Assembly: GCA_963840035.1 (NCBI GenBank) | Contig: CAWIXE010000002.1 | Location: 1,056,001 to 1,120,000, forward strand | Source of the DNA: a candidate division FCPU426 bacterium | GTDB lineage: Bacteria; Oederibacteriota; PGYV01; Palsa-1178 | Length of the DNA: 64,000 nt | Direction of reading: 5' to 3' | Shown: piece by piece, positions 2,779 to 8,058 of the stretch | Numbering within the stretch: position 1 is the first letter of the stretch | Layout: each line of letters starts with the position of its first letter | Notes under the pieces: model-generated | The model's database searches: none | Seen by the model: only the letters and a program-made list of their open reading frames with translations | Told to the model about the DNA's origin: nothing | Translations under genes and position numbers: made by a program

Positions 2779-4677
2779 TTACCTTCCGAGGTTAACAAGC
2801 GTGTCTAACATGTTTGACGAAGTCGTGATGACCCTCGCGTTTGACTCGAAGCCCCTCTGAGCTATGATCATGTTCGTAAGCTCGACTGAGAGGTCAACGT
2901 TTGATGCTTCAAGCGCTCCGCCGATGGTGGATCCTGAGCCCGCTTCTCCGCTGGCTACTACCCTGGCTATGCCTGAATTCGAAGTTGTGCTGTACATATT
3001 GCCGCCCGATTTTGAAAGACCCTGAGCGTTCATGAAAGTAGCTATCGCGAGTTTTGCGATAGTGATTGACCTTTCATTCGAGAACTGTCCGACTATACCA
3101 CCGGAATTATCAACTGAAAGGCTGAGCAGGTCTCCCGCCCTCCATCCGTCAACTTCCTTCGTGTAAGGTGTGTTGTTCGGGATGTATGTCGATACGCCGC
3201 CGACTATCTGGTAAGAACCTGTAACATCGCCTGTCAATCCGTCCCTTAATCCCGGCTGAGCCTGGTCTATGGGGGTGTTGGTAGCGTTATTAACGCGTAC
3301 TGTTCCGTCTGCCTGCGCGCTGGTATTCCAGGAATTCGGCGTTCCGAAATCAAGCTGGAAAGCAAGGTCAAGGGCGCCGTCCGGCATAATGCCCTGCGCT
3401 GAGCTTGCCTGTGTAAATGTTATCATTGGTCCGTAAATTGTTTCTCCATTGATGGTGGTAGCGAGGTTCTGCCTTCCGCCTAATGAAGCTGCCGCTCCGG
3501 GCGCTGCCCAGCTTCCGCCGTTTGACGCGAGCGATCCGTCATCGTTAAACCAGATTGCTGAGTTTGTGTCCATGGCTGTACCTGCTGCGGCTGTAGCAGC
3601 TGTTGTGATGTTTGTTCCGCCGACGCAGTTATAGAAATCCGGCTCGCCTGTCAAGAACGGGTCAACACCGCCGCTGTTAGTGGTATCAAATGCGTACCAA
3701 TCCCATACCGGCCTTGCTGTACCTGCTGCGGCCACGCCGTGCTGGAAGAACCATATTGTAAGCGACCTTGGGTTGCCGAGCGAGTCATAAACAGTAAATG
3801 TGGATGTCGCGTCCGGTGTTATCTTTGCCGAATTCACATCTGCCGGGTTTGTGTGGAAGAAAGCAATGGTGGCTGCCGGCCAGTTTGTTGCCGGTGGGAC
3901 AGGAGCTGCGACATATGTAGTACGCTGCTGAATTGAACCTGCGCCGCCTGCGAGCGGAACCTGTGCTCCCGCCGTATAAGCGTCCGGTGAATAATTGGCC
4001 GGAAGCGGTGTGCCTGTGCCGGCGGCTGCTGCTGCTACTGAAGCATAGTTGTTCTTTGTCGTGTTGGAGTCAAGGTTTCCTCCGATTTTTACGAACCTTG
4101 TAGCCTGTGCCGACATCGTGAGGTCTTTCGGTATGGTGAGGTTTCCTACCTGTGAAACGTCGTCAGTGTTTAAAACATAGTTTGCGGCGTCTATCTGGAA
4201 TGCGGGGTTGTAGCCGGCAGTTGTCGCGAATGTCCTTTCAATTCCGCCGCTCCAGCCCTGAACGATGCCTCCGTTTGAAGCTACGAGGTTTCCCGCGTTG
4301 TCCTGAAGGAAGTTTCCGGCCCTTGTGTATGTGGTCTTTGAGCCTGATTTTGCCATAAAGAAGCCTTCGCCTGTGATTGCTACGTCAAGCGGATTTCCTG
4401 TCGTCTGAATGGCGCCCTGTGTCATGATGGTATCGATTGAGCCGAGTGCCGAACCTAACCCCATCTGCTGAGGATTGATACCGCCGAGATTCGCGGAAGT
4501 ATTCGCGCCTGACGCCGCTCCAAGTGACTGTGTGATCTGTTCCTTGAAGGTGATCCTCTGCATCTTGTACGCTACCGTGTTGACGTTGGAGATGTTGTTT
4601 CCTACAACATTCATCCATGTTGAGTGGTTCTTTAATCCTGAGATTGCCGAGAACATTGATCCGATCATAATCTTCAC
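2779..4677 (-). CDS. flgE: Flagellar hook protein FlgE
   Basis: AISGL...GNNISNVNT N-terminus, TGNPLDVAI.GEGFF, YTRAGNF, C-terminal LEASNVDLSVELTNMIIAQRGF. Confidence 0.95.
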   Translation of the reverse strand: MKIMIGSMFSAISGLKNHSTWMNVVGNNISNVNTVAYKMQRITFKEQITQSLGAASGANTSANLGGINPQQMGLGSALGSIDTIMTQGAIQTTGNPLDVAITGEGFFMAKSGSKTTYTRAGNFLQDNAGNLVASNGGIVQGWSGGIERTFATTAGYNPAFQIDAANYVLNTDDVSQVGNLTIPKDLTMSAQATRFVKIGGNLDSNTTKNNYASVAAAAAGTGTPLPANYSPDAYTAGAQVPLAGGAGSIQQRTTYVAAPVPPATNWPAATIAFFHTNPADVNSAKITPDATSTFTVYDSLGNPRSLTIWFFQHGVAAAGTARPVWDWYAFDTTNSGGVDPFLTGEPDFYNCVGGTNITTAATAAAGTAMDTNSAIWFNDDGSLASNGGSWAAPGAAASLGGRQNLATTINGETIYGPMITFTQASSAQGIMPDGALDLAFQLDFGTPNSWNTSAQADGTVRVNNATNTPIDQAQPGLRDGLTGDVTGSYQIVGGVSTYIPNNTPYTKEVDGWRAGDLLSLSVDNSGGIVGQFSNERSITIAKLAIATFMNAQGLSKSGGNMYSTTSNSGIARVVASGEAGSGSTIGGALEASNVDLSVELTNMIIAQRGFESNARVITTSSNMLDTLVNLGR

Positions 4678-4694: not shown

Positions 4695-4768
4695 GGCTCC
4701 GTATTCAACGGGCCCTTTTTAAGGAGGCTCCTTCTCGCCTTCTTTGCAAGGCAAAGAAGTCCAGCCTC
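4695..4768 (-). promoter_or_regulatory. Structured flgE leader (candidate cis-regulatory RNA)
   Basis: GAGGC-TGGAC-[hairpin]-GGA-GCCTC stem followed by GGCCCGT-TGAAT-ACGGAGCC hairpin; similar elements precede fliK. Confidence 0.45.
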
Positions 4769-4780
4769 ATTTTACTTAGC

Positions 4781-5182
4781 TTACGCGAACACCGCGCTGT
4801 CAATATTCGTGAAAACATTTTCCTTCATGCCGCTTTTGTCAACGGCCGTAATCACGGTATTGTTCTTCACGCTAACGATAAGAGAAAAATTATCGAATAT
4901 CATGAGCGTTTCGTTGGCGCCTTTCTCTTTTGCCTTCGCTACCGCGCCTTTCAGCCTCTGCATGATGTCAGGCGTAAGCTCTATGTCCCTTGACGCCAGC
5001 CTTTTTTCCGCGTGGGCTGAAAACCTTATCTCGGTATCGTTTACCGCTACCTTGTCTTCGAGAACCTGCTTAAAAGATGGGGTACCCTGGGCAGGCGCCT
5101 GCGTGATATTTAACTGGCGCTTTTGTGCCTCTTGCAGCTGTGATAACTTTTGCAGCTGACTGTTATTTACATTATTAATCAT
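4781..5182 (-). CDS. Flagellar operon protein, TIGR02530 family
   Basis: RFSAHAEKRL..R, KA.EKG, TVITA.D, NVFTNIDSAV motifs; between flgD and flgE. Confidence 0.85.
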   Translation of the reverse strand: MINNVNNSQLQKLSQLQEAQKRQLNITQAPAQGTPSFKQVLEDKVAVNDTEIRFSAHAEKRLASRDIELTPDIMQRLKGAVAKAKEKGANETLMIFDNFSLIVSVKNNTVITAVDKSGMKENVFTNIDSAVFA

Positions 5183-5202
5183 TGGGTATTCTCCTCCTTC
5201 TT

Positions 5203-5685
5203 TTAAGCCTTAATCTCCTGCACGTCCGCGATGCCGTAAAGCACTCCGTTAACCTGTAGCTTTGGCTGTCCATCCACGAACTTTATTACTGTTACCTGCC
5301 CTGTTACATCCGGGCCTTTTGTCGTCGTGCCGTCCGCTGCCGTAATCGTCGGTGAAATTGTAACGTTCTTACCGATCAGTCCCGCTGCCTGGGTCGTATT
5401 CTGCATCATGATAAGCGCTATCAAGTTCTTGTTCAGCGAATCCATGGAAGACGACTGGCCGGCAAATGTCGTGTTAAGGCTCTGCATCTGCTCAAGCGAT
5501 GAAAACTGCGCCATGTCAGCAACAAACGACTCATCCGTTACCGGGTTTGTCGGGTCCTGATACTGGAGCTTCGTGATGAGCATCTTTAAAAAATCGCTCT
5601 TGCCGAGCTGTGATGTCGGATTATCCACCTGGCTCGTAAAATTCGCGTTCGTAAGTCCGGTATTTCCCACATTAGAAATTGCCAT
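5203..5685 (-). CDS. flgD: Flagellar hook capping protein FlgD
   Basis: LGKSDFLKMLITKLQYQDPTNP...MAQFSSLEQM. Confidence 0.93.
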   Translation of the reverse strand: MAISNVGNTGLTNANFTSQVDNPTSQLGKSDFLKMLITKLQYQDPTNPVTDESFVADMAQFSSLEQMQSLNTTFAGQSSSMDSLNKNLIALIMMQNTTQAAGLIGKNVTISPTITAADGTTTKGPDVTGQVTVIKFVDGQPKLQVNGVLYGIADVQEIKA

Positions 5686-5703
5686 TGTGCACCTCCTCTC
5701 TTT

Positions 5704-7923
5704 TTAAGCTAGGTAATTAAGGTAGCCGTCGGCGCTGATATAAGGATCATCGCCGATATTTATATCTGAAACCGGCGCCTGTAAAGCGGCGCCTTCCCAT
5801 TCTTTAAAGGGGTTCTTTGCCTGTCCGCCAAGGCCCTGATTCATGCCCTGGTTTGCTGTGGAAATCTCAAAACTGTCAAGTTTTAAGCCTATGCTGTTTA
5901 AAGCCGCTTTAAGCTCCGGAAGGTTAGCTTTTAAAGCGTCCTTTACGTCGTTATTTAAAACCTGTATGTTCGCTTTTAATTTATCATCCTTGTGCTCTAT
6001 GGTAATCATCACCGAACCAAGGTTCTCAGGTTTCAATATCATTTTAATCTCATTGACCCTGACTGCCTGGATTGTATTTTCTATATTGCTTACCACCTGC
6101 TTAAGTATGATCTGTTCCTTTATGTTCATGGCAAAATCAGTTACTTTATCAAAAATAAGCGCCTTAGCCAAAACATCGCCTTTAATATTTGCGGTGTCTT
6201 CTTTTATCGACGGGTTGATGACATTTTCAGTTACCCACTGTATGTCTTTTGACAGGCTCTTGTCAGCCGGACTGTAATTTTTATCGGGTGAAACAGTGAT
6301 GCGCTCGCCCGCGAATTTTACGGCTTCAGGCGCCACAGTGGACGCTGTTTCCCTTACATTGACTGACTGCACTGTTATTTTTGAATTGGAATCCGCGGTT
6401 TTTACATCCGGCGTATTTACGACAACCTGCGCCGCGCCTGTTTCCTTCTGTACTATCACCGTGGTCTCATCTGACTGTACCGGCGTTATCACAGGCGTAA
6501 CAACCGCCTGCGGCTTTACCTGGTTTACTGTTACTGCTGAAACCGGCTGATTGACAACAGGCGCGTTTTTAGCGTCGCCTGAAATTTTTTCCGGCTGGAA
6601 GCCCGCATACTGCGTTTTTTCGGATATTTCGATTTTTCCGTTCATTTCTTTTAAGAGTGTAAATATTTTATTAACAACAGCCGAGAACTCGTCACTAACC
6701 TGAGCCGCTCCTGCCGTGAAATTTTTTGCCTGTCCGTCATCCTGCGTGGCAGACCCGGAGCTGCTTATATTAATTGCGTTTATGATTGCGTTTTTTACAT
6801 CAGCTGACGCATCGCCAGGAAGGCCGTTTATGGCCGCGCCGGCTATCTGCATTTTTTCAACTGACATTATTATGTTATTCATGGAGGTCATTATCAGCTT
6901 TGCGGCCTGATCGAGCTGCTGTTGTGTAACCGGCACCATCGGATCGGCATCAGTTGCTGATTTGAGTTCGTTTATTGTGTTCTTAATCGCGTACATCTGT
7001 TCGTTCGCTTTTTTAGCCTCATCGCTGTTTTTCTCATTGCCGAATATTTCGCTGAAATGCTTCTGCATGATGTTATCAAGCACTCCCTGAAGCGTCGTAA
7101 CCAGCCTCTCGAGCTCATTTACAGCGGACTTAACATCAACCTTCGCGATATCATACTTCGCGCCAAGGGATTCAACGGTTGTTACTCCGTCGGCATCAGC
7201 TGGAATAAACGCGCTGCCTGTTGATACAGGCGCTGAAACAACCGGCGATACTATCTTTGAGACTGTTACCGTTCCAGCCGTTTCCAGAGGCTGTGTATTT
7301 GTGGTTTCGGGCATAACATTCAAAGCAGCAGATGTCTGAGCGTTGTTGGCCGGTACCGCATTATCCGTGGTTGTGTTTGAAATGACGGAAGGCAGGTTTG
7401 ATGCTGCCCCGGATAATGTCTGTGGCTGGATGGTTGTGGAAGAAGAAGCAACCTGGTTTGTTGAAAAACCTAATACGGCTATATTGGATGTGGTTGTATT
7501 ATTTAATGTGCCGTTTAGCGCGGCTTCACTGGCTGATATTTCAACGGCAGTGATCTTTAATCCTTTCAGGAAAAGCTGCCTTTCAGCCGGGTTTAAATTA
7601 TTTTCCTGCATTACATTCGCGACTGTCATGTCTTTTGATATGGCGTCAGTGTCCTGCGCCGCGATGGTCTTTACGCTTCCCATGAGGTAAAGTATTGAAG
7701 CTGCCTGATATAACGCGGCCTTAACTTTTTCATTGGATTCGGTATCGATGGACAGCTGTACTTTTTCATTATTTAATTCTGTGTTCATGAGGTTTGTTAT
7801 GAGTGTTTTGAAATTGGCGTTATCGGGGTTTGGCTGCGCGGCGTTATTTATCGTACTGCCGCCCAACAATGCGGATAGACTAATGGCTTGCGCTAAATTA
7901 GTCGATGCAGTTGAGTTGACCAC
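5704..7923 (-). CDS. fliK: Flagellar hook-length control protein FliK
   Basis: C-terminal LKPENLGSV...L..NLPELK.AL domain, low-complexity N-terminus; start reassigned to GTG 7923 (GGAGG at 7931-7935). Confidence 0.85.
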   Translation of the reverse strand: MVNSTASTNLAQAISLSALLGGSTINNAAQPNPDNANFKTLITNLMNTELNNEKVQLSIDTESNEKVKAALYQAASILYLMGSVKTIAAQDTDAISKDMTVANVMQENNLNPAERQLFLKGLKITAVEISASEAALNGTLNNTTTSNIAVLGFSTNQVASSSTTIQPQTLSGAASNLPSVISNTTTDNAVPANNAQTSAALNVMPETTNTQPLETAGTVTVSKIVSPVVSAPVSTGSAFIPADADGVTTVESLGAKYDIAKVDVKSAVNELERLVTTLQGVLDNIMQKHFSEIFGNEKNSDEAKKANEQMYAIKNTINELKSATDADPMVPVTQQQLDQAAKLIMTSMNNIIMSVEKMQIAGAAINGLPGDASADVKNAIINAINISSSGSATQDDGQAKNFTAGAAQVSDEFSAVVNKIFTLLKEMNGKIEISEKTQYAGFQPEKISGDAKNAPVVNQPVSAVTVNQVKPQAVVTPVITPVQSDETTVIVQKETGAAQVVVNTPDVKTADSNSKITVQSVNVRETASTVAPEAVKFAGERITVSPDKNYSPADKSLSKDIQWVTENVINPSIKEDTANIKGDVLAKALIFDKVTDFAMNIKEQIILKQVVSNIENTIQAVRVNEIKMILKPENLGSVMITIEHKDDKLKANIQVLNNDVKDALKANLPELKAALNSIGLKLDSFEISTANQGMNQGLGGQAKNPFKEWEGAALQAPVSDINIGDDPYISADGYLNYLA

Positions 7924-8029
7924 AACTATTCCTCCGAACTTCAGGCCCTCCTTGCGGTCCAGGCCTTTAGTTTTATAGCGGGTAATCGACCCGCTTAAAT
8001 CTAAAGAGTACATCTGCTACTTCACGGTA

Positions 8030-8058
8030 AGTATACAAAATCCCGCTTTATTTGTCAA
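8030..8058 (-). promoter_or_regulatory. Internal sigma-70-type promoter for fliK-flgD-flgE
   Basis: TTGACA-17 bp-TATACT. Confidence 0.7.

Follow-up and report, generated by a model that had tools for sequence, protein, structure and literature searches.

A two-domain RNA element in the leaders of rod and hook genes accompanies the TIGR02530 gene of flagellar operons

We have analyzed a stretch of 64,000 nucleotides (nt), positions 1,056,001-1,120,000 of contig C2, from the 3.46 Mb, 98%-complete genome of a candidate division FCPU426 bacterium. We refer to this whole stretch as the window, and coordinates below are window positions on its minus strand. The window contains a flagellar gene cluster in which a gene of the TIGR02530 family lies just upstream of the hook gene flgE, and a structured RNA element is present in the leaders of both flgE and fliK. 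Comparison with other genomes indicates that this element and the TIGR02530 protein together form a real, widespread and uncatalogued RNA–protein module for rod and hook genes. An earlier sequence-only reading of the window had pointed to a shared motif in these two leaders, and that observation has held: the leader sequences it quoted all lie on the minus strand where it placed them, covariation is found in alignments of both, and the element is common to many phyla.

The element has two parts. Domain A consists of a stem of 4-9 base pairs (bp), a 3 × 1 internal loop in which a 5′ GGA lies opposite a single A or G, and an inner stem opening with a C-G pair, whose hairpin is variable in length (8-37 nt, with an insert of ~95 nt at one locus). 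Domain B, a single hairpin, has a GA-rich loop. In its widespread form this loop is 10 nt of the form GA-nn-GA-nn-GA, with the G and A nucleotides present at 19-20 of 20 ten-nucleotide loops, and it is shortened to a YGANY pentaloop in the order to which this organism belongs. The TYGAWTA loop recognized earlier is seen in both leaders of the window and proves to be a local short form (a YGAWY pentaloop) of the widespread loop. A proposed core of TGGAC...AAGGA is not conserved as such; its closing stem is retained, and the conserved core is the internal loop lying between the two stems. Among 91 distinct copies this loop is GGA/A in 67, GGA/G in 19 and GGU/R in 5 (thus GGA in 86/91), and the GGA is predicted to be unpaired with a probability of 0.96. 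The loop-side pair of the closing stem covaries, being U-A in 42 copies, C-G in 20, U-G in 13, C-A in 8, A-U in 5, G-C in 2 and G-A in 1.

The element recurs 3′ of the TIGR02530 gene in 30 relatives and in 80 loci from diverse phyla, in genomes titled Bacillota, Armatimonadota, Fibrobacterota-type, Desulfuromonadales, Thermoleophilia, Planctomycetales and others. A descriptor of domain A finds it in 97 of 108 loci that have sufficient DNA downstream of the gene, from many phyla; this count includes the window, three duplicates and one weak match. Several of the 11 misses were recovered by a covariance model, and those that look real cluster in Armatimonadota-type loci. The model was built from an alignment of 67 sequences from which the window's own sequences were excluded. 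In this alignment 84% of the cells are paired and 15 of the 17 pairs change on both sides, with a covariation of 0.477 compared with 0.196 for shuffled alignments and ≤0.174 for slid partners. These compensatory changes in the stems, the conserved loops and the steady same-strand position 5′ of one class of genes mark the element as a structured, putatively cis-regulatory RNA. No family in Rfam 15 matches either leader of the window or the element in 20 other loci, and the Termite-flg RNA (RF01729) gave no match at the element in five genomes.

The two copies in the window, and a promoter-like site upstream of the second, are as follows.

4695..4714, minus strand: domain B of the flgE leader, a hairpin with a UGAAU loop, ending 26 nt before the start codon
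4724..4768, minus strand: domain A of the flgE leader, a 6-bp stem, GGA/G internal loop and long inner hairpin
7943..7966, minus strand: domain A of the fliK leader, a 6-bp stem, GGA/A internal loop and 2-bp stem with a GCAA tetraloop, ending 19 nt before the start codon
7977..7995, minus strand: domain B of the fliK leader, a 7-bp hairpin with a CGAUU pentaloop; four of five counted pairs change on both sides, with 100% pairing in 14 sequences
8030..8058, minus strand: sigma-70/sigmaA-type promoter-like site TTGACA-17-TATACT in the fliJ-fliK gap, an 11/12 match judged by consensus only

The flgE leader continues into a Shine-Dalgarno sequence (SD) at 4682-4679 and an ATG at 4668, and in a genome-wide search the covariance model scored this copy with E = 5e-7. 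Folding z-scores of the leaders lie between -2.4 and -3.9. Given the promoter-like site in the fliJ-fliK gap, the fliK copy would be an element of the 5′ untranslated region. Its domains are in swapped order, with B before A, as noticed in the sequence-only reading. The model scores it weakly (11.6 bits) because of this order, and the fliK copy thus rests on its own alignment. Of 20 stretches that we retrieved from members of the same family and the same order, 17 have a fliJ match. The fliJ-fliK junction is visible in 16 of the 17, and all 16 contain a domain A closed by a GCAA tetraloop; in most of them the pentaloop hairpin lies upstream of it, behind a TTGACA-17-TATAAT-type site. In 14 aligned fliK leaders 96.7% of the cells are paired, and both partners vary in 6 of 13 pairs, with one of five measures (further pair types) falling below shuffles. 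On this alignment the swapped copy is conserved across order-level relatives, as a feature of the lineage.

A joint descriptor of domains A and B finds two sites in the whole genome, and these are exactly the flgE and fliK leaders. Shuffled genomes contain 0.67 such sites on average (12 shuffles), so the count of two is not in itself significant; the signal lies in the placement of the sites and their conservation. Weak model matches elsewhere in this genome, and in genomes lacking TIGR02530, sit in coding or unrelated sequence.

In other genomes the copies additional to that at flgE lie mostly 5′ of flgG, and occasionally of flgF, flgD, fliK or flagellin genes, with flgG and flgF distinguished by gene order and N-terminal sequence. 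We fetched 50 secondary matches from Bacillota. Forty-six precede flgG-type genes and two precede flagellin, giving 48/50 before a flagellar gene; the remaining two follow an flgF-type gene and have an unrelated gene downstream, and flgG there has its own copy elsewhere. Among 20 secondary matches from the organism's own phylum, 11 precede flgG-type genes, and there is one each before flgF, flgD, an open reading frame (ORF) at the fliK position and flgE at a distance. One further copy precedes a 161-amino acid (aa) low-complexity ORF and another a probable helix-turn-helix gene, and three are weak off-target matches. Where two flgE genes stand in tandem (locus L228, G312:C11:44200-47500) each has its own copy, so that the element belongs with the gene that it precedes. 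We also scanned metagenomes with a pattern that took no account of the genes nearby; this returned >120 matches, 80 of them readable. Both hairpins are possible in 34 of the 80, and 32 of these precede a flgE/F/G- or flgB-type gene, compared with 3 of the 46 without both hairpins; of the other two, one is short of downstream DNA but follows TIGR02530, and one is a chance match in a coding region. The targets thus appear by gene context to constitute a rod/hook regulon rather than a balance of FliK and FlgE setting hook length. The co-ordination of these two proteins suggested earlier was too narrow a view, since flgG is the commonest second target and the fliK copy is limited to a lineage.

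The 161-aa ORF that follows a full copy of the element (L115:759-1241, genome G027) has no Pfam match and contains FADLL at residue 34; it is possibly an early flagellar export substrate that has escaped recognition. At L330 and L123 the element lies upstream of a small helix-turn-helix-like gene, which leads into flgB in L330.

The element and the TIGR02530 gene occur together. Our Bacillota sample, centered on Paenibacillus, comprised 151 genomes, of which 121 have flgD (and were counted as flagellated) and 103 have TIGR02530. A model match with E<1e-4 is present in 99 of the 103, and inspection showed the element in the other four as well. By contrast, a strong match was found in none of the 18 flgD-positive genomes that lack TIGR02530, and in the 17 of these where flgE could be viewed it follows flgD with no element between. 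The descriptor matched weakly before flgE, in the gap, in one TIGR02530-negative genome (L204), but this match was unsupported by the covariance model and was rejected. A second match is present in 51 of the 103 genomes, in most cases at a distance from the TIGR02530 gene, so that loss of all copies takes more than one deletion. In a Desulfobacterota sample centered on Desulfuromusa (101 genomes) the element is present in 6/6 genomes with the gene and 0/60 flagellated genomes without it, where three weak matches all fall in coding sequence. In the organism's own phylum the model finds the element in 37 of 43 genomes with the gene, rising to 42 after inspection, compared with none of three flagellated genomes without it. 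The proposed tie between motif and gene is therefore borne out, at 103/103 versus 0/18 in Bacillota and 6/6 versus 0/60 in Desulfobacterota. Viral contigs contain no relative of TIGR02530, and the full structure is present in 0/16 pattern matches there; a preprint (10.1101/2024.12.16.628780) calls a gene of phage G TIGR02530-related.

The TIGR02530 protein of the window is 133 aa long. It comprises a variable N-terminus containing F37xxxL41, a predicted RelE/colicin-like (BECR) domain at about 49-122 with conserved residues H57, R61, R65, K87 and T112, and a C-terminal motif F124-D128. Two AlphaFold models agree (mean predicted local distance difference test score, pLDDT, 77 and 83, with the core about 90-95) on a low-confidence N-terminus and a helix at 37-47, followed by two helices and a sheet. 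The sequence-only reading had seen a resemblance to DUF4258-type predicted RNases, and profile matches support this, with the fold comparison consistent with it. Of the top 15 structural neighbors in VIA, 14 are toxins of the RelE/ParE/YafQ/HigB families and one is Cami1 (Z 4.6-6.0, root-mean-square deviation 2.6-4.6 over 61-85 residues), and lower-ranked neighbors include colicin E5, a CdiA toxin and RegB (Z 3.3). Neighbors among viral models include DUF4258 and a phage site-specific RNA endonuclease (E 0.017); a sequence search of solved structures with the protein gave nothing useful. DUF4258 (PF14076) matches 29 of 75 relatives at E≤0.1 (best 1.3e-4), and the window protein itself has no Pfam match to it at E≤1. 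By these profile matches TIGR02530 is related to DUF4258 and not a member of it.

In 149 diverse members H57 is conserved in 99%, R61 in 98%, R65 in 94% and T112 in 100%. The active site of RelE includes conserved basic residues on the sheet, and the sheet of these TIGR02530 proteins lacks such residues. In the colicin-like BECR RNases, including DUF4258, the site is described in a recent preprint as a His with Lys/Arg on the first helix together with residues of the last strand (bioRxiv 10.64898/2026.08.28.747851). The conserved His, Arg and Thr of TIGR02530 match this pattern, as judged by residue conservation. The modeled fold thus makes RNA binding by the protein likely and RNA cutting possible. 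A toxin of a type II toxin-antitoxin system would have an antitoxin gene beside it; no antitoxin or immunity gene adjoins TIGR02530, whose neighbors are flgD and flgE. Longer fused forms are eight singletons on short contigs and are likely artefacts of gene calling.

The first 36 residues cannot be aligned, yet F37 is kept in 99% of the members and L41 in 90%. The motif FxxxΦ is shorthand for the gate motif of early substrates. The Phe of FxxxL lies at residue 30-45 in 138 of 145 members (control 18.5%), and at 30 or later in 141 of 145. An early (rod/hook) export substrate is recognized by the signal motif together with its spacing from the N-terminus (PMC8983047). F37xxxL41 has both the motif and the spacing and so resembles the signals of rod and hook proteins, making it a candidate early export signal. 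I, L or V at aligned position 5 (80%) and the low pLDDT of residues 1-30 are weakly specific as export features.

We propose that TIGR02530 may be an exported early substrate that recognizes the element, and that turns the rod/hook mRNAs down whenever early export is not running; we put this reading forward tentatively, at slightly less than an even chance. While the gate is accepting rod and hook substrates the protein would be drained from the cell, and synthesis of FlgG, FlgE and FliK would proceed. While the gate is not yet working, or once export has switched to the filament type, the protein would accumulate and bind the GGA/R internal loop and the GA-rich loop. The bound protein would then block initiation, or cut the leader through its colicin-like His/Arg/Thr site. 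Such control would stage genes that lie inside one long operon. The components differ in strength. Direct binding of the element by the protein is likely, its export is somewhat more probable than its retention, and, if it is exported, a negative sign is probable, since the protein would run low at the time of demand for hook and rod subunits and accumulate before the gate works or after the specificity switch, which argues for a repressor. Cutting of the leader is plausible, though we lean against it. Domain B ends a median of 30 nt (range 8-172) from the start codon, and the SD has no fixed partner, so that cleavage or remodeling is as plausible as a steric block.

A number of observations weigh against this proposal. 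The flgF and flgG leaders of this genome lack the element, and full copies lie ~80 and 250 nt upstream of genes for flagellin, a late substrate (L169/G156, L184/G120). Three copies (L168, L179, L227) lie after a gene and have nothing flagellar downstream of them; these may be relics of rearrangement, or may have a role at the 3′ end. The co-occurrence counts are drawn from related genomes that are not independent and are not corrected for the tree, and as the flgE copy lies right next to the TIGR02530 gene, often 2-7 nt from its stop codon, a single deletion removes both. TIGR02530 occurs with no recognizable element in Armatimonadota-type loci L047, L049, L060 and L069, and with a weak one in L075, where a divergent form of the RNA is possible. 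Conversely, at L290 (flanking locus only) the element lies between flgD and an flgE-type gene with no TIGR02530 in cis, and G090, probably an incomplete genome, has a copy at flgG with neither TIGR02530 nor flgD found. The distance from domain B to the start is often too long for simple steric block. On the protein side, structural Z values of 5-6 are under the tool's level for a clear match, Foldseek gave nothing at E≤0.001 (the same families ranking first), and the F37-L41 helix may be structural (local pLDDT 62-79).

The same RNA-protein pair might act positively, the leader being bound or processed to stabilize the mRNAs or boost rod/hook translation, or the mRNAs being tethered at the export gate for localized synthesis. 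The targets are the highest-copy early subunits, a gate motif combined with an RNA-binding fold would suit an adaptor, and the long distances between element and start would be accommodated. The SD is also somewhat more paired than that of control starts (median unpaired 0.33 versus 0.49), which an activator could relieve. However, no single partner sequesters it: in 84 leaders the SD pairs with the coding region in 20, domain A in 14, the spacer or domain B in 11 and nearby sequence in 3, and is unpaired in 36. On the same grounds we rejected a fixed SD-sequestering switch. Moreover, when both export signals are present and correctly spaced, a protein should traverse the gate and not stay (PMC8983047), and an exported activator would drop just when it was needed. 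We consider positive control doubtful.

It is less likely again that the protein is a non-exported repressor, binding or cutting the RNA under the control of a partner switch, such as an N-terminal helix that binds unexported FlgE, FlgD or FlgG, after the manner of FliW, CsrA and flagellin. FliW-CsrA offers a precedent, the co-occurrence and fold evidence apply equally, and the FxxxL helix could serve for protein docking. The FxxxL is nevertheless kept at a constant distance from the N-terminus across a hypervariable linker, a requirement for an export signal but not for a docking helix. We think it improbable that TIGR02530 serves as an exported accessory in the structure or assembly of the hook or rod and that another factor or housekeeping RNases read the RNA, the two traveling together as one ancient module. 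The adjacency of the flgE copy and the exceptions in both directions would be explained, but all 18 + 60 + 3 flagellated genomes that lack the gene lack the distant flgG copies as well, and the protein has a predicted nuclease-type fold with conserved His and Arg.

CsrA had been suggested as the reader of the GGA triplets, which are conserved and predicted to be unpaired as noted above, and CsrA is present in most motif-bearing Bacillota. We nevertheless found no CsrA in this genome, of the 18 Bacillota that are flagellated but lack TIGR02530, nine have CsrA and no motif, at least six motif-positive genomes have no CsrA match, and the GGA lies in an internal loop where CsrA prefers one in an apical loop; with a distribution independent of CsrA, this reader is very improbable. 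A terminator, attenuator or DNA operator can be dismissed with similar firmness: a U-run follows domain B in one orphan copy (L168), yet ≥4 U in the next 8 nt are found in only 5 of 72 leaders, neither leader of the window has a terminator-like call on the coding strand, and half-sites spaced 8-37 nt apart with paired inserts, one of ~95 nt, fit an RNA and not a DNA operator.

By analogy, the module resembles known controls that couple flagellar mRNAs to assembly, although its parts are unrelated and it would act at another stage. In FliW-CsrA-flagellin and FlbT/FlaF an RNA-binding protein likewise acts on a flagellar mRNA leader to link subunit synthesis to assembly. Those systems control flagellin mRNA; here the protein fold and RNA structure are different, the targets are rod, hook and ruler genes, and the element occurs independently of CsrA. 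FlgM, an exported anti-sigma factor, is a regulator whose cytoplasmic level is set by export, as that of TIGR02530 would be. FlgM is, however, a late substrate acting on transcription, whereas TIGR02530 carries a candidate early-type signal; it would act on mRNA, and its timing would be the opposite. With the colicin-like BECR RNases, including DUF4258, TIGR02530 shares the predicted helix-helix-sheet topology, the first-helix His/Arg, the last-strand Thr and the weak profile match. It differs in being fixed in flagellar operons with no neighboring antitoxin or immunity gene, and in having an N-terminal export-type extension and its own C-terminal motif. The main texts of bioRxiv 10.64898/2026.08.28.747851 and PMC11980606 name no flagellar BECR member. 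RegB of phage T4 is described in PMC1702504 as a small RNase that cuts GGA-containing sites and shuts off early mRNAs in a staged program. The likeness lies in the GGA of the target, the staged program and the weak structural match; RegB, however, cuts GGAG in phage ribosome-binding sites with S1, whereas the GGA of the element sits in a conserved internal loop, at some distance 5′ of the SD, and cutting is putative.

Termite-flg (RF01729) and flg-Rhizobiales (RF01736) are likewise candidate cis-regulatory RNAs named for flagellar genes (PMC2864571). There was no match at any copy tested, both are limited to a lineage, and the Termite-flg rows available differ in loop sequence. Fremin and Bhatt 2021 list two candidates in Bacillota, HMP2_11826 (Oribacterium) and HMP2_12528 (Selenomonas), which are short structures near flgG/flgF (PMC8040213). 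Each is confined to one genus, and their table rows, on which the comparison was made in place of alignments, give no link to flgE, fliK or TIGR02530; they may be genus-level instances, and so partial earlier sightings, of the element. Literature searches, whose scope left out several large supplements that could hold the motif, gave no description of the element or of a function for TIGR02530. The main texts of PMC6429828, PMC8632094 and PMC11109978 contain no flg or flagell term. A 2026 survey of flagellar genes lists the TIGR02530 protein as 'function unknown' (PMC13277936).

What is new here is the conserved swapped fliK copy and the exclusion of CsrA. The module bears on the timed supply of high-copy rod and hook subunits where rod, hook and export genes share one long operon, and it offers a concrete and testable answer: an RNA element together with a named protein whose catalytic residues and export motif can be predicted. 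A more specific version, which we regard as rather unlikely, is that TIGR02530 is a domesticated toxin-type RNase, itself exported, that cuts a two-domain tag on hook, rod and ruler mRNAs when the gate is not taking early substrates, and that model organisms have lost the pair, which is no more probable. If both export and cleavage were true this would be a second secretion-sensing checkpoint in flagellar assembly, with a toxin fold turned developmental timer. Such an exported RNase would mirror the FlgM checkpoint at the level of mRNA, in most of the flagellated Bacillota sampled and in many other phyla. The pair is present in 103 of 121 flagellated Bacillota and in none of 14 control genomes, including E. 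coli, B. subtilis, C. vibrioides and T. maritima, which would explain why the module was missed.

The genes of the window run on the minus strand in the order fliI, fliJ, fliK, flgD, TIGR02530, flgE, flbD, motA, motB, with the identities of fliJ, fliK, flgD, TIGR02530, flgE and flbD confirmed. The two leaders had been described as flanking the TIGR02530 gene; it does lie between them, as does flgD. The genes concerned are these.

5704..7923, minus strand: fliK (Flg_hook PF02120); likely start GTG 7923 after an SD at 7935-7931, inferred from SD and conservation
5203..5685, minus strand: flgD, hook cap (PF03963)
4781..5182, minus strand: TIGR02530/PF12611 protein gene, 133 aa, between flgD and flgE (105.8 bits, cut-off 83.2)
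2779..4668, minus strand: flgE, hook subunit (NF004241, TIGR03506 and Pfam)

A long, near-perfect inverted repeat lies at 2568-2647, between a terminator-like hairpin of flgE (2754-2723) and a promoter-like site before flbD (2364-2336); an Rfam scan of the repeat gave only chance matches of microRNA type. Close protein relatives of this genome include one labeled Candidatus Goldiibacteriota. No flagellin was found in the genome by tblastn (best E 0.31), although the basal body, hook and motor are kept. There is a second flgD in this genome, near position 310145 of another contig (C3).

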